Below are positions 2,512 to 64,000 of a stretch of 64,000 nucleotides of DNA, piece by piece (the first letter of the stretch is position 1; each line of letters begins with the position of its first letter). This DNA is from Bacteroidota bacterium (GTDB lineage Bacteria > Bacteroidota > Bacteroidia > Bacteroidales > JAGONC01). The DNA lies in assembly GCA_022711405.1 (NCBI GenBank), contig JAKLFC010000010.1:70349-134348 (forward strand), written 5' to 3'. A program made the position numbers and the translations under genes. The notes beneath the pieces were generated by a model. That model had not been told where the DNA came from. It did not search any database and saw only the letters and a list, made by a program, of their open reading frames with translations.

Positions 2512-4899
2512 CTAAATACTGAATATCAAATTAATGTAAAAGTTCCTCCCCGGTTCATAGAAATCCTTCTGGGTCCCGATCAACCGCCTGTTCAGGTGTT
2601 CATAGTAGGTACTGTTGAAAAGGTTTTCCACTCCTCCCGTAATGGTAAAATGGGCGTTGTGGAAATAGGAGCAGGAGATCCCTGCGACAAAGAATCCCGG
2701 TGAGGCTGACTCATAAAATGCCTTTGAAACCTGGTTCTGCCTCGCCACAAAACGGCCCCTGAGCTTTGGGATCAGCTGCCCCTTCAGGAATTTATAGCCA
2801 ACCGTCAGCGTTGATTCAAAAGGAGGGATCTCGGCCAGCGGATCATTTTTAACGACCTCTGTTCCGGTAACCTGACCACTTTCATTGATGATGTTGCGGA
2901 CCGCTTCGTTGATACTGGCATGCGTATAAGAAGCGATGAATTGTACATACCATTGGATCTGTGACGGGGAACCATAGGAAAGCTCAAAACCCCTGAACCG
3001 GGCATAATCTGCATTATAGTACTTTTTTACACCCTTTACCCCGTTGGTGGCTGGTTTTTGCTCTGAAGGAGGGAGTATCTCTCCGGTGATGTAGTTGGTG
3101 ACGATGGAGTAGAATCCATTGATCTCAAGGCTCCCGAAACCGGGATCCTGGAAACGGCCGGTCAGGTCCGCCTGGTTGTTGGCCTCGGGTTTAAGCGAAG
3201 GATTCCCAAGGTAATCGTAATTATCGTACCCAACCGGCAGCAGGGTGATGAACCGTTCGACCATATCGGGGCTTCTTACCCCCCTGCCCAGCATCAGGCT
3301 CAACGAAAGATTATCCATCAGCCAGTAGACAAATCCCGCGCTGGCACTGAGGTTCGTGAAACGGGATTCATTCTCATCGCTGAAATAGATCGTCTTACCC
3401 ATTTTTTCCAAAACGATATCGTCCGAATTGGCATGGTTGAAATCGATGCGTGCCGAAGCGATCAGATCTAAACGGCTGAAAGCCCTGCGATATTCGGCGA
3501 ATAGACCGGCATTGCTTATCACGGCGTTGTTCCATATCTGTTCTGTGTACACTGGCATGGTCGGCTGCATGATGAGGGTTTTGACACGGTCACCGTCCTT
3601 GGTGATGTATTCGAAATCGGCACCGATGGCCAGTATGTTGTTCCCTGATTTGAATCCGCTTTCCAGCCGTCCGCCGGTATTGTAGGCCTGAACGGTCGTC
3701 ACGGCAACCACAGTATCTGAATTGGGGCGTTCCTTGTTGTCCATGGTGTGTTTCACATCGGAACGGTAAACCTTTACCGTCCATGGCAAAAACCTCTCCG
3801 AAGGAGTGTTCCACGAATAATCCAACGACATCAGCCGGGTCCTGTCTTCGCGCATATCCATCGGCAACGCGGGATAATCCACATCCTTTCCGACGGAGTA
3901 GCTGTACGAAAAGAGCAGGTTATGATCCTTTCCCGGCATAATGCCGAACTGACCCCTGATATTGTACTTTTTGTTTTCAGCATCGAACCAGTTCCCATCA
4001 CCGTCCTGGTAATCCCCATTCTGTTTGTTTGTTCCAGAGAGGCCGAAATAAACCAGTCGGTTGCCGCCGTTCAGCACCAGGTGTTCCCGGGTGCCGGAGG
4101 GATTGCTGGTGTATCCAAACAAAGCGGATCCGTCGATGGTAAATCGCTCGTTGACGGGTGGTTTTTGTGTCTGAAGGTTGATGATCCCCCCGAACGAAGG
4201 ACCGTATCGAAAGGCGTAAGGTCCTTTCAGTATTTCAAGGCTCTTAATGTCCTCAATTTCAATATGTGCAATGGCAGGATCCATCCGGTTAGGGCAACCA
4301 CCCTCGATCTTCTGGCCATTGTCGACCTGAACATTCAACTGGCTGTACTTGAATCCCCTGACCACCGGATCCAGTGTGGAGCCCCCTTTCCGGATACCCG
4401 ATACATTGGGTATCCGGCGGATATAGGTACCGATATCGGTGACAGGTGTTTGAATGATCTGTATACTGTTTACTTCTGAATGGAGGTAAGGAAGTTTTAA
4501 GGTTGATGTATCAGTTTGTGAAAATCCCGTGACCTCGATACCTTCCAGTGTTTGCATCTCCGGTGTGAGCAGGATATCGAGACTGAGGATCCCTCCTTCT
4601 GGCAGTGTGACTTTATGCGTATAGGATCTGTAACCCAGGTAACTGACCTCCAGTACACATTTACCGGGACTGATCCCTTCCAGAATGAATCTTCCCGACG
4701 GATCGGTCATGGTACCTCTTTCGTGAGATTTCAGGAATACCGAAGCACCATAGAGTGGATCCTTTGTCTCGCCATCCAGAACATATCCCTGAATAACAGA
4801 TTGCCCATAGCTATGCACAGACAAAGTCACAATGAACAGACAAACGGTGAAGCACCAGTAAATGGTCGGTTTCATATGCAAATGTAACAAGGATTTCAC
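2512..4899 (-). CDS. TonB-dependent outer-membrane receptor
   Basis: 795 aa with a signal peptide, a CarboxypepD_reg-like N-terminal segment (VIQGYVLDGETKDPLYGASVFL), a plug region and a long beta-barrel with a terminal ...NLIFSI. Confidence 0.9.
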   Translation of the reverse strand: MKSLLHLHMKPTIYWCFTVCLFIVTLSVHSYGQSVIQGYVLDGETKDPLYGASVFLKSHERGTMTDPSGRFILEGISPGKCVLEVSYLGYRSYTHKVTLPEGGILSLDILLTPEMQTLEGIEVTGFSQTDTSTLKLPYLHSEVNSIQIIQTPVTDIGTYIRRIPNVSGIRKGGSTLDPVVRGFKYSQLNVQVDNGQKIEGGCPNRMDPAIAHIEIEDIKSLEILKGPYAFRYGPSFGGIINLQTQKPPVNERFTIDGSALFGYTSNPSGTREHLVLNGGNRLVYFGLSGTNKQNGDYQDGDGNWFDAENKKYNIRGQFGIMPGKDHNLLFSYSYSVGKDVDYPALPMDMREDRTRLMSLDYSWNTPSERFLPWTVKVYRSDVKHTMDNKERPNSDTVVAVTTVQAYNTGGRLESGFKSGNNILAIGADFEYITKDGDRVKTLIMQPTMPVYTEQIWNNAVISNAGLFAEYRRAFSRLDLIASARIDFNHANSDDIVLEKMGKTIYFSDENESRFTNLSASAGFVYWLMDNLSLSLMLGRGVRSPDMVERFITLLPVGYDNYDYLGNPSLKPEANNQADLTGRFQDPGFGSLEINGFYSIVTNYITGEILPPSEQKPATNGVKGVKKYYNADYARFRGFELSYGSPSQIQWYVQFIASYTHASINEAVRNIINESGQVTGTEVVKNDPLAEIPPFESTLTVGYKFLKGQLIPKLRGRFVARQNQVSKAFYESASPGFFVAGISCSYFHNAHFTITGGVENLFNSTYYEHLNRRLIGTQKDFYEPGRNFYINLIFSI

Positions 4900-9542: not shown

Positions 9543-9917
9543 TTAATGTCCGCATTTACCATGTTCGTGAGGATGATCATGGTCGCAATAATTGGCACTT
9601 AGGCTCAATTTATTGGCAAGAAAATCATTGACAAGATCCACAGCTGGTTTTATGGGCGCACCCACGAAAGCATTGATCTGATGTTGATTGAAAAGCATGA
9701 TCGCCTGTTGCCCCATGCCTCCGGCGATGACATCAGTAACACCGAACTGAGCAATCCAGCGTGGATACAAACCCGGTATATGTTCCGGGGGTGTGACCTC
9801 CCTAACCTCGGTAATTTTGTTATTTTCAACATTTACGATGGCAAATGCCTGGCAGTGCCCGAAATGGGGGCATAATACCCCGTTTTCCAATGGAATGGCT
9901 ATTCTTTTGTTCAACAT
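9543..9917 (-). CDS. NifB/NifX-family (dinitrogenase FeMo-cofactor-binding-like) protein
   Basis: 124 aa with a HFGHC start region and a GMG...L motif, plus a His/Cys-rich tail (CDHDHPHEHGKCGH). Confidence 0.75.
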   Translation of the reverse strand: MLNKRIAIPLENGVLCPHFGHCQAFAIVNVENNKITEVREVTPPEHIPGLYPRWIAQFGVTDVIAGGMGQQAIMLFNQHQINAFVGAPIKPAVDLVNDFLANKLSLSANYCDHDHPHEHGKCGH

Positions 9918-9931
9918 AATTTCATCATGTG

Positions 9932-10165
9932 TTAATTTCCTCCCCTGAAGCGATTTTGTCTTCCCATACCACTTCCCTTTCCTACTCTGCCGCGACCCCG
10001 TCCCAAACCTTTTCCGGCAGGGTTTTCAGGAAGATTTTCATCCTTGTTTTCATCATCGGATGACACTGACTTTTTCCGGCCCTTACCATAATTGGTACAA
10101 CGGCCCATTTTACGGCCTGACATGGGACCCTGCCCTTCGGGACCTGTACGATCAAAACCTGGCAT
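9932..10165 (-). CDS. DUF5320-type small Gly/Arg-rich protein
   Basis: 77 aa. The N-terminus MPGFDRTGPEGQGPMSGRKMGRC matches the DUF5320 signature as I recall it. The tail is low-complexity and basic. Confidence 0.65.
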   Translation of the reverse strand: MPGFDRTGPEGQGPMSGRKMGRCTNYGKGRKKSVSSDDENKDENLPENPAGKGLGRGRGRVGKGSGMGRQNRFRGGN

Positions 10166-10516: not shown

Positions 10517-10975
10517 TTACATTTCGATGTTCTTTTGCGTATCATTCCAATTAAAACCTTCAACCTGCCGGCTGCCGCACAGGGGACAACGTTCCACTTT
10601 TATCATTCGTTCTGGATTATTGAAATGACACAGGCACTGCTTGCACTGATACCAGTCGCTGTCGAAATATACTTTTCCACCCTCGATGGTGATCTGTCGT
10701 CCTTCGACAAAAGCCCTGGCAATTTTTTCACGTGCCGATGCATAGATCCGTGTATAGGTCGGGCGTGAAATACCCATGACGATGGATGCATGATGATGAT
10801 TATACCCATCATAGTCACATAGTCGTAACGCTTCGTATTCCTCATATAACAGGTAAACTGGCTCAACTTTCTGGTTTTTCAAATCGGAACCGTATGGCTT
10901 GAAACCCTTGATTAGTGGAGGATTTACCACCTTTCTAATTCTTTTTAGCCGTGGTGTCATCGTTATAATGAGCAA
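10517..10975 (-). CDS. DUF134 (UPF0251) putative DNA-binding protein with C-terminal Cys motifs
   Basis: 152 aa. The likely start is MTPRLKRIRKV. It has a ...FKPYG signature, an HTH-like centre, and C-terminal CKQCLC...CPLCG motifs. Confidence 0.75.
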   Translation of the reverse strand: MLIITMTPRLKRIRKVVNPPLIKGFKPYGSDLKNQKVEPVYLLYEEYEALRLCDYDGYNHHHASIVMGISRPTYTRIYASAREKIARAFVEGRQITIEGGKVYFDSDWYQCKQCLCHFNNPERMIKVERCPLCGSRQVEGFNWNDTQKNIEM

Positions 10976-18506: not shown

Positions 18507-19843
18507 AGACGTTTATCATCTCCGTACTTGTTTTATCGTCTGTCTGCCTGTATGCGGAGGATCCTCCAGACTTCGTGGAGGTGGACACGACCACCTATGG
18601 GTATTACGCCAGAAAGCAATGGAATGAACTGGTCGAAGCAGGGAACAGGTATCTGAAGTATGGATTTGATTACTATTACCTCAGGATGCGGATCGGAGTG
18701 GCTCATTATGAGCTGCAGAACTATATCAGGGCAGCTGACCATTTCACACGGGCGTTGAAATTCAATGAAGGAGATACTGCTGTACTTGCTCTGTTATATT
18801 ACTCCTATCTTCAGCTCAACAGGACAGATGCTGCTGACAGGGTACTGGGTATGCTGCCTGTGGAAGAAGCCCGGAAATTCCGGTCGGGAAAGTTCAGCTT
18901 CCTGGAAATGGTCTACCTGGAGACCGGTCCACTGATCTCTTCGGGAACGTCGGACAACAGCCGGATGAACCTGGATGGAACCGATGATGTCTATGGAGAG
19001 ATCGATCACCTGATCAGAAATTCATATTACAATGGATTGGGACTTGTGACAAGGCTTGCTCCCTCCGTGAGACTGCAGCTAAGTTATATGGATCTCTTTC
19101 AGGGCAGGACTGCCCAGGTGATGACAGGCGATTCCCTGATCTTTGACAAGGATCACTCCCTTCAGCAGCACCAGTTCTACATCAGCCCATCTTTCCGCTT
19201 TGGAAAGGGATTTTCGGTGATACCTGCCTTTCATTACCTTGACATTACCTACGACCAGCTGCATGTTCAGTACAGTCAGGAAACAAAGAATTATTCGTTT
19301 GATATGGACACCGTCCATCAGAGGGATTACCTGGCGTCCCTCTGCCTGAACAAGGACCTGTCACTGGTGAGCCTGACGCTGACAGGGACGTACGCAAGGC
19401 TCAACATGTTCGATCATTACCAGGCGGAAATTGCCCTCACGTATTACCCCAGGGGAAACCTGGATTTTTATTCCCAAACCATCGGACGGTATATTCATGG
19501 AAGGGAAGACCACTTCCATTTTGCCGAAACTGCCGGGCTGAAGATCAGCAAGGGATTGTGGATGGAAGTATCGGCCACGTTCGGGGAAGCGGCCGAGTTT
19601 TTTGAAAAAAACGGGTACATTGTGTATAACCTGCCTGAGGACATGTTGTTGAAATGGGGTTTCCAGCCCTATTACCAGATCTCGGATCGGTTGCTTGTCA
19701 GTGTGAAATATGAGAACCTGTATCGGGAAAGCAGGTTTCTGCAATATGATTATGAAGAGAATTCAGGGCAGTACCTGCAGGTATATAAACCATTCACGTA
19801 TCATCAACATCTCATCATCGGAATTTTAAAATTGAACCTATGA
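18497..19843 (+). CDS. Secreted envelope protein with N-terminal TPR-like region (possible outer-membrane barrel)
   Basis: 448 aa with a signal peptide. It has TPR-like helices near the N-terminus and an alternating aromatic/polar pattern in the C-terminal two-thirds. It overlaps both neighbours. Confidence 0.45.
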   Translation: MHLKTFIISVLVLSSVCLYAEDPPDFVEVDTTTYGYYARKQWNELVEAGNRYLKYGFDYYYLRMRIGVAHYELQNYIRAADHFTRALKFNEGDTAVLALLYYSYLQLNRTDAADRVLGMLPVEEARKFRSGKFSFLEMVYLETGPLISSGTSDNSRMNLDGTDDVYGEIDHLIRNSYYNGLGLVTRLAPSVRLQLSYMDLFQGRTAQVMTGDSLIFDKDHSLQQHQFYISPSFRFGKGFSVIPAFHYLDITYDQLHVQYSQETKNYSFDMDTVHQRDYLASLCLNKDLSLVSLTLTGTYARLNMFDHYQAEIALTYYPRGNLDFYSQTIGRYIHGREDHFHFAETAGLKISKGLWMEVSATFGEAAEFFEKNGYIVYNLPEDMLLKWGFQPYYQISDRLLVSVKYENLYRESRFLQYDYEENSGQYLQVYKPFTYHQHLIIGILKLNL

Positions 19844-27630: not shown

Positions 27631-27680
27631 AGAGAGGAGAGAGGAGAGAAGAGAAAGGAGAGAGGAGAGAGGAGAAAGAA
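27631..27680. repeat. 50-nt pure polypurine tract, about 7 AGAGAGG heptamers (inverted counterpart of the 2049-2126 tract)
   Basis: Read directly: only A and G from 27631 to 27680. It lies in the divergent gap between the ImcH-like gene start (27572) and the ispG start (27726). Confidence 0.95.
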
Positions 27681-27725: not shown

Positions 27726-29399
27726 GTGAGTATAAATCCGTATCCCTTGAACGATAACAGTTCATCCCCTGTCCGCTTCATAACCAGGGTGGTGAGGGTA
27801 GGCGATGTACCGATGGGCGGAGATTATCCCGTCAGGCTCCAGTCGATGACCACCACCCCCTCGCTGGATACGGTCCGAACCGTTGAACAGGCACTCCGAA
27901 TGGTGAAAGCAGGATGTGAATACGTGAGGATCACCGCACGGAACGTAAAAGAAGCCGAAAACCTTCTATCCATTAAAATGGAGCTGAAAAGAAGGGGATG
28001 TCATGTACCTCTCATCGCCGATGTTCATTTCAATCCCTCCGTCGCGGAAACGGCTGCAAGGATCGTTGAAAAAGTCAGGATCAATCCGGGTAATTATCTT
28101 TCAGAAGACAAAGGACTGCTGCGCGCATCAGAGGCTGAGATGAAGGAACGGCTAAGGAACAGGCTCCTTCCCCTGATCAGGATATGCAAAGAGCATGGAA
28201 CCGCTCTGCGCATCGGCAGCAACCATGGTTCACTGTCAGAAAGGATCATGGCCCGGTTTGGTGACACACCCATGGGAATGGTGGAATCAGCGCTCGAATT
28301 CGCCAGGATCTGCCGTGAGGAAAATTTCAACGAACTCATCATTTCTATGAAATCCAGCAACACACGGGTGATGATCTATTCAAACCGTCTGCTGGTACAG
28401 CGCATGCTGGAAGAAGGGATGGACTATCCTGTTCATCTTGGGGTGACGGAAGCGGGAGAAGGAGAAGACGGGCGCATCAAGTCGGCCATTGGTATCGGAA
28501 CGCTCCTCAGGGAAGGGATCGGGGACACGATCCGGGTATCGCTGACAGAGGAGCCGGAGTTTGAAATTCCTGTGGCAAGGATGATACTACAGTCAGCAGC
28601 CTGTCCTGATGAGTCCCGCTGTCAGCGGGATAAACTTCGCGAAATCAGGATCAGCGGGCCTGTTGAATATAAGAGGCGGAAAGCCCTGCAGGTTGGTGAG
28701 ATCGGTGGGACAAAGGTGCCTGTTGTAGCCACCAATGAACCCATACCCGGACATGTCATTGCGGTTAAATTGGGTGAGTTGACGGACGCGATGATTTCCA
28801 GCATGAAAAACGACCCTGATGCAGTACTGATCGCTGACAGTGATGCGGATACCGGTCATTTTTTTCAAAGGTCCCTGTTCCGGCGACTGACTGAATCCCG
28901 TTGCCTGGTACCGGTCATCATCAGGATACGTTATCCACGCATGGATGAGCAGGAACTGCTGATCAGGAGCTCCATCGATGTTGGTTCACTGCTGATCGAC
29001 GGGTTGGGTGATGGAATTTGGTTGGAGGCAGAAGGACACTCCTCCGGCTATATTAACCGTTTGTCATACAGCATTCTCCAGGGGAGCCGATGCCGCTTCA
29101 CCCGGACGGAGTTCATCGCATGTCCCTCCTGCGGGCGAACGCTCTTCGATATCCAGGATACATTGCTCCGTGTAAAGGAAAGGATGGGCCATCTGAAAAA
29201 CCTTAAGATAGCCGTGATGGGATGCATCGTCAATGGCCCGGGTGAGATGGCCGATGCGGATTATGGCTATGTGGGAGCCGGACCGGGCAAGGTCACCCTG
29301 TATAAGGGCAGGAGTATCATCCGGAAAAATGTGGATGAAAAGGATGCGCTGAATGCGCTGGAGGAGCTGATACGGATAAATGGAGATTGGGAGGAATAG
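27726..29399 (+). CDS. ispG: 4-hydroxy-3-methylbut-2-en-1-yl diphosphate synthase (long, insert-domain type)
   Basis: 557 aa with VRLQSMTTT, the DVHFNP TIM-barrel region, and C-terminal 4Fe-4S ligands (CPSCGRT ... GCIVNGPGE). The start codon is GTG according to the ORF track. Confidence 0.9.
   Translation: MSINPYPLNDNSSSPVRFITRVVRVGDVPMGGDYPVRLQSMTTTPSLDTVRTVEQALRMVKAGCEYVRITARNVKEAENLLSIKMELKRRGCHVPLIADVHFNPSVAETAARIVEKVRINPGNYLSEDKGLLRASEAEMKERLRNRLLPLIRICKEHGTALRIGSNHGSLSERIMARFGDTPMGMVESALEFARICREENFNELIISMKSSNTRVMIYSNRLLVQRMLEEGMDYPVHLGVTEAGEGEDGRIKSAIGIGTLLREGIGDTIRVSLTEEPEFEIPVARMILQSAACPDESRCQRDKLREIRISGPVEYKRRKALQVGEIGGTKVPVVATNEPIPGHVIAVKLGELTDAMISSMKNDPDAVLIADSDADTGHFFQRSLFRRLTESRCLVPVIIRIRYPRMDEQELLIRSSIDVGSLLIDGLGDGIWLEAEGHSSGYINRLSYSILQGSRCRFTRTEFIACPSCGRTLFDIQDTLLRVKERMGHLKNLKIAVMGCIVNGPGEMADADYGYVGAGPGKVTLYKGRSIIRKNVDEKDALNALEELIRINGDWEE
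28599..28655 (+). repeat. 57-nt structured repeat, copy A, in frame inside ispG
   Basis: GCCTGTCCTGATGAG-tCCCGCTgtcAGCGGG-ATAAACTTCGCGAAATCAGGATCAGC. Both flanks are identical to copy B at 54179-54236. The central hairpin differs by two compensated base pairs. Confidence 0.8.
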
Positions 29400-30680: not shown

Positions 30681-30862
30681 GGGGTATATTTCTTTTTAAA
30701 TTGTTAAACTGTCAAATTGTCAAATTGTTTTACTGTCAACAGCCAATTGCAAACTGCCAGCTGATGTAAATGTAGGCAAAATGTTGATTAAAAATCTGCA
30801 TATTTCATTCTACATATTTCATATTTCATACCTCATAATAATGATGTAATTTAGTCTTCCAT

Positions 30863-51113: not shown

Positions 51114-51301
51114 GGTCAAAACCTGAGGATCCCGGGATATCCTCTCCGACGATCATTAAACCAACCCATACGTTCGTTTGATCCTTTCCCACGCTGGCCA
51201 AAATAAGTCATTCATGGCACAGTGGTGGCTTATATTTACTGCCTGGAATTTGGATTTTGGAATTTGTTTCCTGGAATTTGGAATTTTAAAATTTTATAGT
51301 C

Positions 51302-53350
51302 ATGAAAAAACTATTCTCCTTCACGTTCAGCTGCCTGATCGCAGCAACCCTGCAGGCCCAGGTCATCCATGTGCCTGCCGATTACCCCACGATCCAGCAG
51401 GGTATCGATGCCGCAAACCCGGGCGATACGGTTTTGGTGTCCGACGGGACCTATTACGAACAGATCAGCTTCCTGGGCAAGTCGCCGCTGATGGTGGCCA
51501 GCGAGTTCATTATGGATGCCGATGAGAGCCATATCGCCGGCACGGTCATCGACGGGAGCCAGTTGACCGATATGGACAGCGCTTCGGTGGTGTATTTCAT
51601 TTCCGGGGAGGATACCACTTCGATCCTGTGTGGTTTCACCGTCCAAAATGGACACGGGACCTATTCTCTGCTAAATATTGAAGCGAGTCGCGGTTTCACC
51701 ATAAAAAATGGTCATGGAACCCATTCTCCGGAAAATCTTGAGGCGGGTTTTGGTTTCACCTTTGGGAATAGTCGTGGAACCCATTCGCGGGAAACTCTTG
51801 ATCTCAGAAATGGAGGCGGGATCTTCATTTCCGGTGCAAGTGCCAAAATCCTTCACAACAGGATCACGCACAATAGCCTTGATTTAACGCAACCGGTGAA
51901 TGGATCGTATGCAGGAGGTGGCGGAATCGGAACACCATGGGAAGAAAGCGACCATTGGCTTATCATGGAGGATAATACGATCGACAGCAATTCCTGCGTC
52001 TCCGATGTCAATCCCGGTCAGGCATATGGAGGAGGTGTTGCCACCACATGCAATTCCAGGATTGTCAATAATATCATTACTTATAATTCCTGTAACGGAT
52101 ATTCCGGTGCTGTCGCTACCTCCGGCGGAATAGATTGTGGCCAGGACCCCACCTGGACAACCCCTGTTGTCATGATGGTCGGGTATAATACGATTTCATA
52201 TAATACGACACAATCACAGGGCAACTGGGCAAATTCGGCTGGTGTCCAGGGTGAAGGCGTACCGTTAATATTTTCACATAATGAAGTGGATTTTAATACT
52301 GCAAATTCAGGGGCGACCGTCGGCGGGGTTGGGGGACTTTTATTATATGACCCTGACCCGGGAAGCGTGGTCAGCAATAATGTGTTTAAAGGGAATGGAA
52401 CTAATGTGTATTCCGGAGGATTGGGCCTGGAAAATTCGATGACGGCTGATAATACCGTTCTTGTTGAAAACAACTACTTTATTGATAATGAGGCGAAACA
52501 TGGTGGCGCTGTTTGCGCTTTTTCTATTCCTGTAGTTCTGCAAAACAACGTTTTCAGTGGTAATCAGGCAGGGCTCCATGGTGGAGGGATCTATTTCAGT
52601 GATCAACTTGCCTTACTCTCTCCATCCATTCTGGCCAACAATAGTTTTTCAGGAAATATGGCTAACAATCTGGGAGGTGCCATTGCTATTTTTTCATCTG
52701 TCTGGTCGGAGATGGTGATCATGAATTCAATTTTCCGGGCAGACGGCGCAACGACTGGTGCCGAGATTCATGGCTCCGGAGAAATTCCCGTTGAACTGGC
52801 CCACTGCAACATTGATCCTGCTAAAATCTGGGGTACCTGGACCGATGGGGGCGGGAACATCAATGAAGATCCGCTTTTCAGGGATCCGGTATACCTGATC
52901 CCTGAAGACTGGAACAGTCCCTGTGTGGATGCCGGAATAGCTGAATATACCAGCAGTACGGGGATCCTATGCAGTGCTCCTGCTTATGATATTCTGGATA
53001 CCCCGCGGCCGAACGGAGAGGGCTATGATATGGGAGCCTACGATCAGGTGCAATATGTCGGGGTGAAGGATCATCCGGTCAGCGGTCAGCAGCTGGCGGT
53101 CAGTGTGTATCCGAATCCGGCCGGTGGAACAGTCGATTTTCGGTTGTCGATGACCGATGGCCAGAATATGACCTTGAAGATCTATGATCTGCAGGGCAGG
53201 GTAGTGGCGGTGGTGCTGGATAAAAGCCTGCCTGCCGGGGAATACCTGGTGCCGTTCGATGTTTCGGGGCTGGAGGCGGGGATCTATTTTTATCAGTTGG
53301 CGGTCGGCGGTAAGCGGTCGGCGGTCAACGGTAAGCTGGTGAAGCTTTAG
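51302..53350 (+). CDS. Secreted right-handed beta-helix (pectate-lyase-fold-like) protein with T9SS C-terminal sorting domain
   Basis: 682 aa with a signal peptide and many GGG(I/A) ... N.F..N parallel beta-helix turns. The C-terminus is VYPNPAGGTVDF...AGIYFYQL. Confidence 0.75.
   Translation: MKKLFSFTFSCLIAATLQAQVIHVPADYPTIQQGIDAANPGDTVLVSDGTYYEQISFLGKSPLMVASEFIMDADESHIAGTVIDGSQLTDMDSASVVYFISGEDTTSILCGFTVQNGHGTYSLLNIEASRGFTIKNGHGTHSPENLEAGFGFTFGNSRGTHSRETLDLRNGGGIFISGASAKILHNRITHNSLDLTQPVNGSYAGGGGIGTPWEESDHWLIMEDNTIDSNSCVSDVNPGQAYGGGVATTCNSRIVNNIITYNSCNGYSGAVATSGGIDCGQDPTWTTPVVMMVGYNTISYNTTQSQGNWANSAGVQGEGVPLIFSHNEVDFNTANSGATVGGVGGLLLYDPDPGSVVSNNVFKGNGTNVYSGGLGLENSMTADNTVLVENNYFIDNEAKHGGAVCAFSIPVVLQNNVFSGNQAGLHGGGIYFSDQLALLSPSILANNSFSGNMANNLGGAIAIFSSVWSEMVIMNSIFRADGATTGAEIHGSGEIPVELAHCNIDPAKIWGTWTDGGGNINEDPLFRDPVYLIPEDWNSPCVDAGIAEYTSSTGILCSAPAYDILDTPRPNGEGYDMGAYDQVQYVGVKDHPVSGQQLAVSVYPNPAGGTVDFRLSMTDGQNMTLKIYDLQGRVVAVVLDKSLPAGEYLVPFDVSGLEAGIYFYQLAVGGKRSAVNGKLVKL
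51632..51811 (+). repeat. 3 x 60-bp in-frame tandem repeat inside the beta-helix gene
   Basis: The units start with GGTTTCACC at 51632, 51692 and 51752. They encode three 20-aa units: GFTVQNGHGTYSLLNIEASR, GFTIKNGHGTHSPENLEAGF and GFTFGNSRGTHSRETLDLRN. Confidence 0.85.
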
Positions 53351-53368: not shown

Positions 53369-54166
53369 TTGTATTTTGCTATGGACTTCACTACTTTTGA
53401 GGGAAACAATACCGAGCAGTTGATCCGGACGATCATTATCGACGACGAGTTGCATGCGCGTGAGACCCTCGCCAGGCTGGTATCACTGTATTGTCCGCAG
53501 GTCAGGATTGCAGGGGAAGCCGACGGTGTGGCCAGCGGATTGAAGATGATCCGTGAGCATCGCCCGCAGCTCGTCCTGCTGGATATCAAAATGGATGACG
53601 GAACCGGATTTGACCTTCTCCGCCTTTGCGATCCCCTCGATTTCAGGGTCATCTTCATCACTGCTTATGAGAAATATGCGGTCCAGGCGTTCCGGTTCGC
53701 AGCAGTGGATTTCCTGCTCAAACCGGTCAATCCCGAGGAACTGGCCGAAGCGGTGAAGCACGCGGAGACCCTCATCCAGGAGCACTTTGTCACCCAGCTC
53801 CAGGCGCTGGAGGAGAACCTGCGGACCGACCTCCGGCAGAAAAAGAAGATCGTGCTGCGGACGATGGACAGCATCCACCTTGTGGAGGTGCAACAAATCA
53901 CCTATTGCGAGTCGGACAGGGCCTACACCCTGGTCCACACGACTGACGGTGAAAAGATACTGATCTCCAAAACACTCCGTGAATTCGATGATATGCTTGC
54001 TGACAGCGGCTTTTACCGTGTCCATAAATCGTACCTGATCAACCTGTCGCATATCAGCCGCTTCGATAAGAAGGAGGGAGGGTATATCATGCTGAACGGC
54101 GGCGACAAGGTGCCGGTTTCGTTCCGGAAAAGGGAGGAATTGCTGGAGATGTTTGAGAAACTATGA
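53369..54166 (+). CDS. LytTR-family response regulator
   Basis: Receiver domain (IIIDDE...LLDIKMDDGTG...FITAY) plus a C-terminal LytTR DNA-binding domain (FYRVHKSYLINLSHI). Confidence 0.85.
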   Translation: MYFAMDFTTFEGNNTEQLIRTIIIDDELHARETLARLVSLYCPQVRIAGEADGVASGLKMIREHRPQLVLLDIKMDDGTGFDLLRLCDPLDFRVIFITAYEKYAVQAFRFAAVDFLLKPVNPEELAEAVKHAETLIQEHFVTQLQALEENLRTDLRQKKKIVLRTMDSIHLVEVQQITYCESDRAYTLVHTTDGEKILISKTLREFDDMLADSGFYRVHKSYLINLSHISRFDKKEGGYIMLNGGDKVPVSFRKREELLEMFEKL

Positions 54167-54178
54167 GGTCGGTCGGCG

Positions 54179-54236
54179 GCCTGTCCTGATGAGCCCCGAC
54201 TTTCGTCGGGATAAACTTCGCGAAATCAGGATCAGC
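54179..54236 (+). repeat. 58-nt structured repeat, copy B, between the response-regulator and kinase genes
   Basis: GCCTGTCCTGATGAG-cCCCGACtttcGTCGGG-ATAAACTTCGCGAAATCAGGATCAGC. See copy A at 28599-28655. Confidence 0.8.
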
Positions 54237-54328
54237 AGTCAATAGTCAACAGTCAGCAGTGTGTGCTGTAGAAAGCAGTGACGAAGGATCGGCATTCAGT
54301 AAACATTTAACAGTTCAGCCAGTTTACA

Positions 54329-58853: not shown

Positions 58854-59987
58854 TTATTTTTCCGCTTCGGCCGGCTCCACATTCACCACCTCGTACATGT
58901 CCTTTCCATCCACCTTTACAGGCTGGTAATAGGTTTCACCCAGTTTTACGTAGGTCACATCCCCGATCCTGACCTCTTCTCCTCCTTCAGGCAGGTTCTC
59001 TACAACCGTTCCGGCGGTTGGGGGCACGACGGTGTAGCCATCTTCCGTTTTTTCATAATACGTTCCACCATAGTAATAATTATTGGTGGTCTCATTCACC
59101 ACCACGGACTGGGATCCTTCGGGCAGAACCTGAATGGTGGCTCCGGGTGGAGCCTCCACCACTGTATAACCACCATCGCTTTTAATATAATAAATCCCTG
59201 AATCATAGTAGTATTGTTGCTGTTCCACGCTGACAACAATGGCTGTCACCGCCAGTGCAGCAACAAAAAATCCCCAGGGATGATAGACCGGTCCCCAGTA
59301 ATACGGATGATAGGGATGATAATAATATGGGTGGAAACAGTTATAATGGTATCCGCCGTATGCATAGGGAGGCCTGGGATAGGGCGCAACCGGACGCCTC
59401 ACGTAATAATTGTCCCGGTCCACATTGATGTTGACATCCCTGCTGTTGTCAATGTTTATATTGCCCACATTGGTTCTGTCACCTGTGGAGACATTGGTTC
59501 TGTCACCTGTGGAGACATTGTTTCTGTCTCTTGTGGAGACATTGGTTCTGTCACCTGTGGAGACATTGTTTCTGTCTCTTGTGGAGACATTGGTCCTATC
59601 ACTTGTGGAGACATTGGTCCTGTCAGCGGAGGAAATGTTTTTTCTGTCCGCCGTCGAGACAGATGCCTTATTACGCGAGGCAGAAGACTGATTGCCGCCG
59701 TTGATCGATCGGTTTGCGGTACGATCGGAGGTACCCGCAGAGACAGAACGGTTCTGTGTTGGGGTCTGGCGGCTCTGTGTGCTTGACGCGCGGCTGTAGC
59801 TGGATGAGGAGCGGCTGTAGGAAGAAGAGGATGGACGGCTGTAGGAAGAAGGGGAAGGGCGGCTCATGCCACCGCCGCCACCACCATGTGAAAATCTTTG
59901 TGCATCAAGGATCAGGGGCCAGAGAAAAGCAATGGCAAAGAGGAGCAGTACAGTTGTCACCTGGAATAAACGGAACCTGGTTATCAT
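58854..59987 (-). CDS. Membrane/secreted low-complexity repeat protein with Tyr-rich C-terminal domain
   Basis: 377 aa with an N-terminal hydrophobic segment, a Ser/Tyr/Arg-rich region and about 8 copies of an 8-aa unit (VSTGDRTN). These are followed by a Pro/Tyr/His-rich stretch, a TM helix and YY..G.YY repeats. Confidence 0.6.
   Translation of the reverse strand: MITRFRLFQVTTVLLLFAIAFLWPLILDAQRFSHGGGGGGMSRPSPSSYSRPSSSSYSRSSSSYSRASSTQSRQTPTQNRSVSAGTSDRTANRSINGGNQSSASRNKASVSTADRKNISSADRTNVSTSDRTNVSTRDRNNVSTGDRTNVSTRDRNNVSTGDRTNVSTGDRTNVGNINIDNSRDVNINVDRDNYYVRRPVAPYPRPPYAYGGYHYNCFHPYYYHPYHPYYWGPVYHPWGFFVAALAVTAIVVSVEQQQYYYDSGIYYIKSDGGYTVVEAPPGATIQVLPEGSQSVVVNETTNNYYYGGTYYEKTEDGYTVVPPTAGTVVENLPEGGEEVRIGDVTYVKLGETYYQPVKVDGKDMYEVVNVEPAEAEK
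59467..59658. repeat. About 8 x 24-bp tandem repeat (ACATTGGTTCTGTCACCTGTGGAG and variants), in frame within the 58854..59987 gene
   Basis: Read directly. Units begin at 59467, 59491, 59515, 59539, 59563, 59587, 59611 and 59635. Two unit variants alternate. Confidence 0.85.
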
Positions 59988-60011: not shown

Positions 60012-60740
60012 TTATTTGAATCTGGGCAATATGGATACCTCCCGGGTTGCAGGCGGGGGAGTGAATTCAAACACTGAGGCCGGGATTGCCGGATTAAGCT
60101 GCCAGTTGCTGAATGCGGCTTCATATTGCCTGTTCCCTTCCTTTTTATACAGAATGACGAATTTTTGAGGCAGGGTAAATGCATCGGCCGAAAACCACAT
60201 CTGAACACTGACGACAGGATTGGAAGACAGTATATGAAAATATTCCTGACCGAATACCTTCTTTTTCCCAAGGAATACAACGGTATCAAAGTTAGCCAGG
60301 ATGTCATCCGTAAAGGTCGGGTAAAAGAAATCCGCAGCCGGGAACTCAATGCCATAATTCTTGTTGATGGTGTCGATCATGTCGATCAGGTTATCCGGTG
60401 CTATGATGGTGGCAAAATTATTCTCGTCGAAGGAGTATGTGATGGCCTGCCACCCGTTATACCAGAATCCCCGGTGACCTTTGTCTCCCTGGGTCTTTAT
60501 ATACATTTTGTCCGGACCGCCCAGGTAAACCTCATCCGTCCAGGTCTGTTTTATCTGGCCGAAATCCGGATCATTGACATCCATGGAGGTGTTCAGCGTG
60601 AAACTGCATGAAGTCAGGTCACCGATAACGGAAGCCATCCGGTCGATGATCATGACCGCGACGGTATCAACCCGCAGTTCCTGCGCGGGGGCTGACAAGT
60701 ACAGGGCAAGCCCGGTGAAAAACAATAGGACTTTTTTCAT
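60012..60740 (-). CDS. DUF2092/LolA-like periplasmic protein
   Basis: 242 aa with a signal peptide. The pattern ...YLGGPDKMYIKTQGDKGHRGFWYNG... and the C-terminal ...F.F.PP... fit the LolA-like DUF2092 fold family. Confidence 0.6.
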   Translation of the reverse strand: MKKVLLFFTGLALYLSAPAQELRVDTVAVMIIDRMASVIGDLTSCSFTLNTSMDVNDPDFGQIKQTWTDEVYLGGPDKMYIKTQGDKGHRGFWYNGWQAITYSFDENNFATIIAPDNLIDMIDTINKNYGIEFPAADFFYPTFTDDILANFDTVVFLGKKKVFGQEYFHILSSNPVVSVQMWFSADAFTLPQKFVILYKKEGNRQYEAAFSNWQLNPAIPASVFEFTPPPATREVSILPRFK

Positions 60741-63328: not shown

Positions 63329-64000
63329 ATGATTGCAAATGTACATTTTTACCTGAAGCCGGGAAAACCGAACAAGAAAGGTGAAAAACCCATTGTCATG
63401 CGAATTACCTACAACAATCAGCGTTCGGTTATTCATATTGGCTTCATGATTAAACCAAAATACTGGGCGAAGAATCAATTGGTTTTACCAAATCCGGCGC
63501 ACGAACCGGATAATTTTCACCAGATAATAAACAAGAGAATTAAGACCTATCGGAAAATAGCCGAAGACACTATCAGTAATGCGATTGAAAATGGAATTTC
63601 GCTTTCTGATGCCTACCTGAAGAACCAGATCAAGAATGTGGGTCAAATGGAGTCAGGCAAAAAAACATTTTTCACTGCCATGCAAGAATATATAGATTCA
63701 AGTAAATCGACCAAGGCAGAAAGAACTATAAAGGGCTATACAACCACCAAGACATTCTTGAAGGATTTTGAAGATGCTACCGGATTTAACATTGACTTCA
63801 ATACGATCAATTTAACGTTTTATGATAAGCTGAGAAATTATGCCTTTTTAGAGAGGGAAATACTTGATAATTATTTCGCAAAAATAATTTCTACCCTGAA
63901 ATCATTTATGAATTGGGCAGGGGACAGGGGTTATCATAAAAACCAGTTCTATTCTAAATTCAAAGCAACTGAAAAGGAAAATGAGGTAATATTTCTGACT
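63329..64000 (+). CDS. Tyrosine recombinase/integrase, Bacteroidota type (N-terminal arm-binding + SAM-like domains); 3' end cut by window edge
   Basis: Not in the ORF track because there is no stop in the window. My translation from ATG 63329 is MIANVHFYLKPGKPNKKGEKPIVMRITYNNQRSVIHIGFMIKPKYW...TIKGYTTTKTFLKDFE...FYDKLRNYAF...LKSFMNWAGDRGY... This is the standard N-terminal layout of Bacteroidota mobile-element integrases. Confidence 0.8.
   Translation, partial: MIANVHFYLKPGKPNKKGEKPIVMRITYNNQRSVIHIGFMIKPKYWAKNQLVLPNPAHEPDNFHQIINKRIKTYRKIAEDTISNAIENGISLSDAYLKNQIKNVGQMESGKKTFFTAMQEYIDSSKSTKAERTIKGYTTTKTFLKDFEDATGFNIDFNTINLTFYDKLRNYAFLEREILDNYFAKIISTLKSFMNWAGDRGYHKNQFYSKFKATEKENEVIFLT

Follow-up and report, generated by a model that had tools for sequence, protein, structure and literature searches.

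A low-copy structured repeat nested in heptamer arrays of Lentimicrobiaceae-like Bacteroidota, with one copy in frame within ispG

Introduction

Rickettsia palindromic elements (RPE), attributed to Ogata et al. in 2000, are reportedly inserted in frame in protein genes, housekeeping genes included, and yield surface or linker peptides tolerated by the host protein. RPEs are alphaproteobacterial, about 100-150 bp long and found in tens of copies in each genome, and they are not known to be linked to microsatellite arrays. Repetitive extragenic palindromic (REP) elements are mostly intergenic and may influence the stability of mRNA. Cyanobacterial small dispersed repeats (SDR), attributed to Elhai et al. 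in 2008, are said to measure 21-27 nt, to be capable of forming hairpins and to nest in other short repeats, reportedly including tandem heptamers; nearly all SDRs are intergenic, and heptanucleotide tandem repeats (STRR) abound in the genomes that carry them. The palindrome of REP and REPIN sequences spans 20-40 bp and carries a GTAG or CGTC tag at one end (PMC3733652), the over-representation of heptamers has been reviewed (PMC4692102) and an insertion of SDR5 in HIP1 has been mentioned (PMC5861425). Here, a 57-58-nt structured repeat is described from a 64,000-nucleotide stretch of Bacteroidota DNA (the window), where one copy lies inside the reading frame of ispG and a second between a response-regulator and a histidine-kinase gene. 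A full-text search (Lentimicrobium intergenic tandem repeats) found no published description of such an element in Bacteroidota.

Results

The two copies in the window share a 15-nt 5' flank (GCCTGTCCTGATGAG) and a 26-nt 3' flank (ATAAACTTCGCGAAATCAGGATCAGC), each of which occurs exactly twice there, against a chance expectation of 0.00 for the 26-mer, while their central hairpins differ by two doubly compensated pairs. The basal helix is an imperfect 12-nt inverted repeat (GCCUGUCCUGAU / AUCAGGAUCAGC), and in copy A 10 of the 12 arm positions are complementary, with nine Watson-Crick pairs and one G-U. The initial annotation, made from the letters of the window, had claimed the identical flanks, the compensating hairpin, the pairing of the flanks and the in-frame position of copy A, all of which held. 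The features concerned are as follows.

27726..29399, + strand: ispG (GcpE) open reading frame (ORF), 557 aa, host of copy A (Pfam GcpE, E 3e-122)
28599..28655, + strand: copy A, long form with A-type hairpin, in the ispG linker codons (aa 292-310), 82 bits with covariance model R1
28599..28610, + strand: 5' arm of copy A, GCCTGTCCTGAT, forming helices P0/P1 with 28644-28655
28611..28613, + strand: GAG of copy A, 5' half of a conserved purine (tandem G.A) internal loop
28614..28630, + strand: apical hairpin P2 of copy A, UCCCGCU-GUC-AGCGGGA, 7 bp
28631..28643, + strand: invariant unpaired segment of copy A, UAAACUUCGCGAA, in which lie the palindrome UUCGCGAA and CGAA, one half of the purine loop
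28644..28655, + strand: 3' arm of copy A, ATCAGGATCAGC, its end similar to a heptamer unit
54179..54236, + strand: copy B, long form with B-type hairpin CCCGAC-UUUC-GUCGGG, 90 bits with R1

In order, the long form reads arm GCCUGUCCUGAU, GAG, hairpin P2, UAAACUUCGCGAA and arm AUCAGGAUCAGC; the GAG of copy A together with the CTGAT just before it spells CUGAUGAG. The apical module of the long form consists of a 6-7 bp hairpin and the invariant unpaired AUAAACUUCG, and that of the short forms found in relatives is a UGARA loop. The loop bases of the element are GAG/CGAA and AUAAACUU, and in the purine loop 5'-GAG/CGAA-3' tandem sheared G.A pairs can stack on a G-C pair. Copy B begins 12 nt past the stop codon of the LytTR response-regulator gene and ends 93 nt ahead of the ATG of the TPR histidine-kinase gene.

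Members of the family beyond the window (related sequences are given by L numbers) were sought with an exact 23-base pattern, CCTGATGAG-N8-30-TTCGCGAAATCAGG. It matched once in each of two whole metagenome-assembled genomes (MAGs), Bacteroidales JAQUQD01 (L001) and Lentimicrobiaceae JAGONC01 (L002), and nowhere in viral contigs. Metagenome contigs gave 14 matches, of which L010 alone is real, the other 13 being at chance expectation; a BLAST search of plasmids and phages returned nothing beyond partial matches (E 0.6). Two of the chance metagenome matches (L009/L014) share a 10-bp perfect inverted repeat, CTCAGCTGAT…ATCAGCTGAG, around CTGATGAG…CGAAATCAG, probably a coincidence produced by the search pattern. 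Orthologous loci supplied further copies in L017 (ispG) and in L027/L028 (the DUF5063 site of a fourth lineage), as well as truncated or diverged relatives in L019, L020, L022, L023, L029 and L030. Covariance model R1 was built from five distinct long forms, with the 3-nt hairpin loop padded with N to keep the structure consistent, as plain MAFFT misaligned A-type against B-type hairpins. R1 recovered six long-form copies at 80-90 bits and the short forms of L019 (E 1.6e-5) and L030 (E 0.005), and over about 295 kb of related DNA it found no further credible copies; weak matches (window 18798-18829 and 60534-60575, L001 7579 and L027 13064; E at least 1) were taken as chance. The family is thus real but low-copy, a small set of dispersed repeats read as specific to Lentimicrobiaceae-like Bacteroidota. 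The further copies whose count the initial annotation had proposed do exist, dispersed in related MAGs, albeit in low number. The whole window had no match in Rfam at gathering thresholds, and copies A and B and the L002 spacer gave noise alone at E up to 10 (CC0196 and mir-278, E >1).

The same 57-58-mer occurs at three unrelated loci in at least five genomes. These non-homologous sites are the ispG linker, the response regulator-histidine kinase (RR-HK) spacer and the spacer between a DUF5063 gene and a 149-aa gene of unknown family. The ispG linker holds the long form in the window and L017, short or short-like forms in L019 and L023 and diverged forms in L020 and L022; the RR-HK spacer copy is copy B of the window, and the DUF5063 spacer is occupied in L001, L002, L010 and L027. 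Copy B is identical to the DUF5063-site copies of other genomes at 57 of 58 positions, which argues that the element has been copied between arrays fairly recently.

Those arrays are a constant of the element's surroundings, as all element sites are bordered by tandem (R)GTCRRC units. In L002, for example, AGTCGGC AGTCAAC AGTTGGC AGTCGGC precedes the element and AGTCAGC follows it, and copy B of the window sits between GGTCGGTCGGCG and AGTCAAT AGTCAAC AGTCAGC. Arrays of the RGTCRRC family are rare, with about eight loci in 295 kb including all three element sites. The polarity of the element relative to the heptamer strand is constant, and in L029 element and array are inverted together. The same arrays also occur without the element at orthologous sites: the ispG linker of L021 is pure (GTCGGCR)n and the RR-HK spacer of L025 reads AGTCAAC AGTCGGC AGTCGGA AGTCGGC AGTCAAT. 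Furthermore, the arms themselves look like heptamer units and their reverse complements. The window holds the following arrays.

28588..28598, + strand: heptamer array remnant ACAGTCAGCAG, directly 5' of copy A; orthologues have 2-9 units
54166..54178, + strand: heptamer-like units GGTCGGTCGGCGG, 5' of copy B
54237..54260, + strand: heptamer array AGTCAAT AGTCAAC AGTCAGC AGT, on the 3' side of copy B
53295..53329, + strand: GGTCGGC-family array without the element, at the 3' end of a Por_Secre_tail ORF

The Por_Secre_tail ORF (51302..53350) contains GGTCRGC-family arrays at 53077-53090 and 53295-53329, both translated (…AVGGKRSAVNGKLVKL) and both without the element. In general, the window is unusually rich in period-7/8 tandem repeats, and many of its intergenic regions consist of unrelated repeats of this period (1139-1216, 2049-2123, 2499-2531, 27631-27675, 30698-30830, 51244-51286 and 54232-54260), with units such as AAAATCA, CTCTCTC x10.7, AATACTG, AGAGAGG x6 immediately 5' of ispG, AAATTGTC and TGGAATT. 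Such repeats are a genome-wide habit shared by relatives, for example AATTTAAC/AATAGAAC in L002. Longer tandem repeats at 59467-59648, 59790-59864 and 51632-51786 (24/72-nt units x6.6, 24-nt x3.3 and 60-nt x2.6) are probably coding repeats of surface proteins.

Copy A lies wholly within the ispG ORF and is translated as AACPDESRCQRDKLREIRISG. The first Pfam GcpE stretch ends at residue 293, and the linker (roughly aa 289-312) is both hypervariable and disordered: across 20 aligned IspG orthologues, the stretch that follows ...EIPVARMILQ varies widely in both length and sequence, and in an AlphaFold2 model (mean pLDDT 83, pTM 0.85) pLDDT falls below 50 at residues 294-308, that is, in the peptide encoded by the element. 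This bears out the possibility, raised by the initial annotation, that the roughly 19-aa segment is lineage-specific extra sequence. Array and element are confined to a clade with about 60% or more identity to the IspG of the window, and more distant IspG proteins lack both. Some linkers are visibly translated heptamers, such as SRQSAVSSWQLAVNSRQSAVSS in P0007, and all seven of the orthologous ispG ORFs examined are intact.

The clearest comparison is with L017, whose IspG is 80% identical to that of the window in amino acids and whose gene is 83% identical in DNA. The array of L017 differs by 8 additional nucleotides upstream of the element and 7 downstream, so that the first indel shifts the frame, the second restores it and the element between them is read in another frame, yielding VLMSSAISGINFAKSGSA in place of the CPDESRCQRDKLREIRIS of the window (the full element in L017 is translated as VLMSSAISGINFAKSGSAVSS). 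By inspection, the third sense frame of the element contains a TAA. The hypervariable linker, the change of frame in L017 and the low pLDDT together argue that the element peptide is an unconstrained disordered linker, and the situation envisaged by the initial annotation as contrary evidence, the same peptide in relatives without the hairpin, was not encountered. The nucleotides behave differently from the peptide. At four-fold-degenerate sites of ispG the identity of the window to L017 is 65%, whereas the 41 element bases outside the apical hairpin show a single change (binomial P 7e-7), so that conservation of the element at the ispG site exceeds neutral expectation. Selection is on the nucleotides, both in the helices and in the unpaired GAG/CGAA and AUAAACUUCGCGAA, and the amino acids are not conserved.

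Pairing has been maintained while the hairpin sequence changed. L017 adds a C-G to U-A double change to the two that distinguish A-type from B-type hairpins, giving three P2 pairs altered on both sides, and 95% of cells are paired in the structure, compared with 19-47% when partner columns are slid. The sense RNA of four copies folds with z-scores of -2.6 to -3.9 against dinucleotide shuffles, and the antisense strand with -1.7 to -1.8; on our own reading of the sequences, most wobble pairs also fall on the sense strand. As the nucleotides are strongly conserved, unpaired bases included, a folded single strand is presumably recognised by something, and the fold z-scores and wobble pairs suggest that sense RNA is a likelier level of action than DNA.

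Short forms retain the arms and the GAG...CGAA bases with the apex exchanged: GCCUGUCCUGA-UGAGUGAGACGAAC-UCGGGAUCAGC in L019, GCUUGUCUCCG-CGAGUGAAACGAAA-CGGGGAUCAGC in L030 and GCCUGUCC-AGAGGAACGCAGUGACGAG-GGAUCGGC in L029. This identifies the conserved core as a basal helix closing a GAG/CGA(A) loop and carrying an exchangeable apex. In L030, CCUGA/UCAGG of the long form has become CUCCG/CGGGG, with three consecutive P1 pairs doubly compensated (U-A to C-G, G-C to C-G and A-U to G-C) and one pair gained at a position that is mismatched elsewhere. The MAG JAGONC01 contains both an intact long form at the DUF5063 site (L002) and a diverged ispG copy (L020), in which a P2-like apex, UCCCGC-CAAG-GCGGGA, is kept and the GAG/CGAA loop bases are lost; the L020 ispG linker (10775-10880) includes (GCGAA)3 and forms a long hairpin of -42 kcal/mol (z -2.9).

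At the DUF5063 site, the whole spacer of about 285 nt is approximately 100% identical between L001 (~4380-4660) and L002 (~2350-2640), and the L027 spacer (9863-10100) is near-identical over the 238 nt read, repeat copy number aside. The four-fold sites of the genes flanking the spacer are just 40-54% identical. Judged from the sequences, the near-identity of the spacer suggests either lateral replacement or very strong constraint. The DUF5063 protein of L030 is closer to that of L002 (82%), yet L030 has a different spacer with a short form, a discordance better explained by lateral replacement or mobility of the spacer than by simple vertical conservation. Relatives also carry another dispersed palindrome, which is GC-rich and reads CCCCACCCCTGCACCC…GGGGAGGGGACGGGGG (L026 5257-5340; L027 6248-6263; L030/L031 ~9800-9900), once directly 3' of a LytTR response-regulator gene and once within the spacer of the DUF5063 site; in the window it has one partial match alone, with two mismatches, at 63915-63930, and that is not element-like. 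On the antisense strand, one frame runs open through the element (…ADPDFAKFIP…; window 54087-54242 and 28593-28868, minus strand), and gene callers have extended the N-terminus of the DUF5063 protein with it (P0244, 215 aa), an annotation artefact.

The long form also spells a hammerhead core, CUGAUGA-G...C-GAA-A with a G10.1-C11.1 pair, and places its hairpin at the stem II position. The pattern CTGATGAG-N(8-30)-CGAAA is present in both window copies and in all six long forms, although only 0.06 would be expected per window, and it sits inside an element that was picked for other reasons. Every long form has CUGAUGAG-[hairpin]-CGAAA, corresponding to C3-A9, G10.1-C11.1, G12-A14 and A15.1, with U.G or C-G at position 10.2/11.2, and the flanks abound in GUC and AUC triplets. 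A self- or trans-cleaving ribozyme of hammerhead type could be predicted on this basis, its stems I and III being supplied by flanking heptamers, a second molecule or a dimer; dimeric action is known for hammerheads whose stem III is tiny (PMC3088659). Nevertheless, the Rfam hammerhead models (RF00163, RF00008 and RF02275-7) gave no match on 200-nt slices even at E up to 10. Type I and type III arrangements in cis were rejected on inspection: stem I is missing, no cis cleavage site is defined, and the best type I arrangement has a stem III of 2 bp and, at position 1.1-2.1, an A/C mismatch. All minimum-free-energy folds place CUGAU entirely in a helix with AUCAG. In L030 UCUCCGCGAG replaces UCCUGAUGAG with compensating changes in the 3' strand, which indicates that the supposed core bases behave as helix, and L019 has C in place of A15.1. 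Potential trans substrates (ATCCTGATHGACAGG) numbered 10 against 6.1 expected, all with at least two mismatches, and cleavage in mid-ORF of an essential gene's mRNA has no obvious rationale. The element is probably not a hammerhead ribozyme, and the predicted cleaving activity is very improbable. K-turn and box C/D readings of UGAUGA were rejected on inspection, in the one case for want of a 3-nt bulge and in the other of a CUGA D box.

Discussion

With confidence a little better than even, the element is read as a small REP/MITE/RPE-like structured passenger whose niche is the RGTCRRC array, which moves between such arrays and is constrained at the nucleic-acid level. Because heptamers flank the element on both sides, spread without a dedicated transposase is possible: the repeated heptamers would permit both gain and loss, copying by ectopic gene conversion between arrays at different loci and deletion by slipped mispairing between the flanking repeats. 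Alternatively, some trans-acting enzyme may move the element. In ispG, array and element occupy a disordered linker that joins the TIM barrel to the inserted domain; they are translated there in whichever stop-free frame the indels of the neighbouring array dictate, and the peptide would be a tolerated passenger. The initial annotation had recognised a structured dispersed repeat, and in this it was right; it had overlooked the nesting in heptamer arrays, of which the ispG linker is itself one, and the hammerhead catalytic core among the invariant unpaired bases.

Several observations weigh against the passenger reading. No transposase, target-site duplication or autonomous parent element was identified, although a duplication would not be recognisable in any case since the flanks are themselves 7-nt tandem repeats. 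Copy number is low for a selfish repeat, at one exact match per whole MAG, diverged copies elsewhere in those genomes having not been searched. At the DUF5063 site, constraint specific to the element is inseparable from recent lateral replacement, because the whole spacer is near-identical. The short forms fold no better than shuffled sequence (z -1.7, -0.2 and +0.6), and L027 has an uncompensated G to U change in P2 that leaves a C/U mismatch. The claim of the initial annotation that covariation reveals selection on structure gains from the third compensatory pair in L017 but is weakened by that mismatch and by the small number of independent substitutions, and paired changes could also arise without selection, through template switching in quasi-palindromes. 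Finally, a pure passenger would account less well than a host function for the strong conservation seen at orthologous loci.

A host function is the main rival and, although unlikely, it is compatible with the passenger reading. The element would then be a cis-acting RNA motif in which the helix with its tandem G.A pairs presents single-stranded AUAAACUUCGCGAA to a protein or small RNA (sRNA) and so regulates, processes or stabilises the mRNAs of ispG, the RR-HK operon and the 149-aa gene, its dispersal being incidental. Conservation of the unpaired bases at the orthologous ispG site far exceeds the neutral rate, and the arms persist there in some form down to about 60% IspG identity; a conserved base with an exchangeable apex, as in the long and short forms, is typical of functional RNAs, and a low copy number suits a regulon better than a selfish repeat. 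At every site the element is also in sense orientation to a nearby gene, although between divergent genes this is trivially so for one of them. Such a function sits less easily with the empty orthologous sites of the close relatives L021 and L025, with the ispG copy that has lost the conserved loop bases in the MAG of L020 and L002, with the want of an Rfam match or with three host genes that have no evident function in common. A stronger version is improbable. It holds that the element represents a functional RNA class not yet described from Bacteroidota, whose helix and tandem G.A platform purifying selection keeps even within an essential gene; the long form would be a hammerhead-derived or gated ribozyme, dimeric or trans-acting, or else a docking site for a protein or sRNA that processes or regulates host transcripts. 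It is equally improbable that the element is a neutral by-product, a chance quasi-palindrome that originated in a heptamer array and that segmental recombination copied once or twice, with neither selection nor a mobility mechanism of its own. Genomes full of 7-8-nt tandem repeats, arms that resemble heptamer units, the few copies and the ability of template switching to yield compensatory changes would all suit such an origin, but conservation at an orthologous locus far above the neutral rate, recurrence of one 57-58-mer at unrelated loci and the persistence of arms and loop across a family-level clade do not. A reading of the two direct copies as attL and attR of a 25.6-kb island was rejected, as all relatives share gene order downstream of ispG and the copies differ in their hairpins.

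The element links a hairpin repeat to heptanucleotide microsatellites, which are over-represented in bacteria, and the association with arrays suggests both transposase-free spread by gene conversion and a means by which arrays build protein linkers. Translation of the same nucleotides in two frames in related species amounts to a natural demonstration of selection on nucleic acid and not on peptide. For motif hunters the element carries a caution, in that a perfect hammerhead core can reside in a sequence whose behaviour is not that of a hammerhead. The upside would be real should a function emerge for the conserved G.A platform or hammerhead-like core.

Among known systems, the hammerhead is matched in the complete CUGAUGA...GAAA core, but stems I and III are missing and the 5' half of the core is sequestered in P1. 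SDRs may provide a parallel for nesting, from which the element differs in phylum, in sequence and in being roughly twice the size. Miniature inverted-repeat transposable elements (MITEs), such as Correia and Nezha, share with it terminal inverted repeats (here 12 nt, 10/12 complementary, one pair being G-T), a non-coding nature, presence or absence at orthologous sites and occasional in-frame insertion; at 57 nt it is smaller than the usual MITE and its copy number is low, and no parent insertion sequence with matching ends was found in the DNA fetched. The likeness to REP elements, bacterial interspersed mosaic elements (BIMEs) and REPINs lies in a small imperfect palindrome, a single-stranded hairpin and compensatory changes. 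By inspection, however, there is no GTAG or CGTC tag at the foot of P2 or in the arms, and the element is neither high-copy nor arranged in REPIN doublets. An association with REP-associated tyrosine transposases (RAYT) was rejected, as the only Y1_Tnp gene (L020 17197-17562) has no element in its flanks; tblastn found no Y1_Tnp homologue in the window or in L001-L023, which are genome fragments. The element thus fails defining tests of each family tested, be it copy number, the GTAG/CGTC tag or RAYT, and no target-site duplication can be recognised in its repetitive flanks.

The resemblance to RPEs that the initial annotation had proposed stands as regards an in-frame passenger that is tolerated without conservation of its peptide; it does not extend to abundance, in which the element falls short of RPEs, REPs and MITEs alike. 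It is shorter than an RPE, has one or two detectable copies per genome or window and lies in heptamer arrays throughout. Both are nevertheless short palindromic dispersed repeats found at non-homologous loci, inserted in frame in an intact gene whose orthologues lack the insertion or carry a different one, with a nucleotide structure that is conserved where the peptide is not. If this reading is true, the element would be the first RPE-like case in Bacteroidota, a structured repeat housed in the gene of an essential enzyme.

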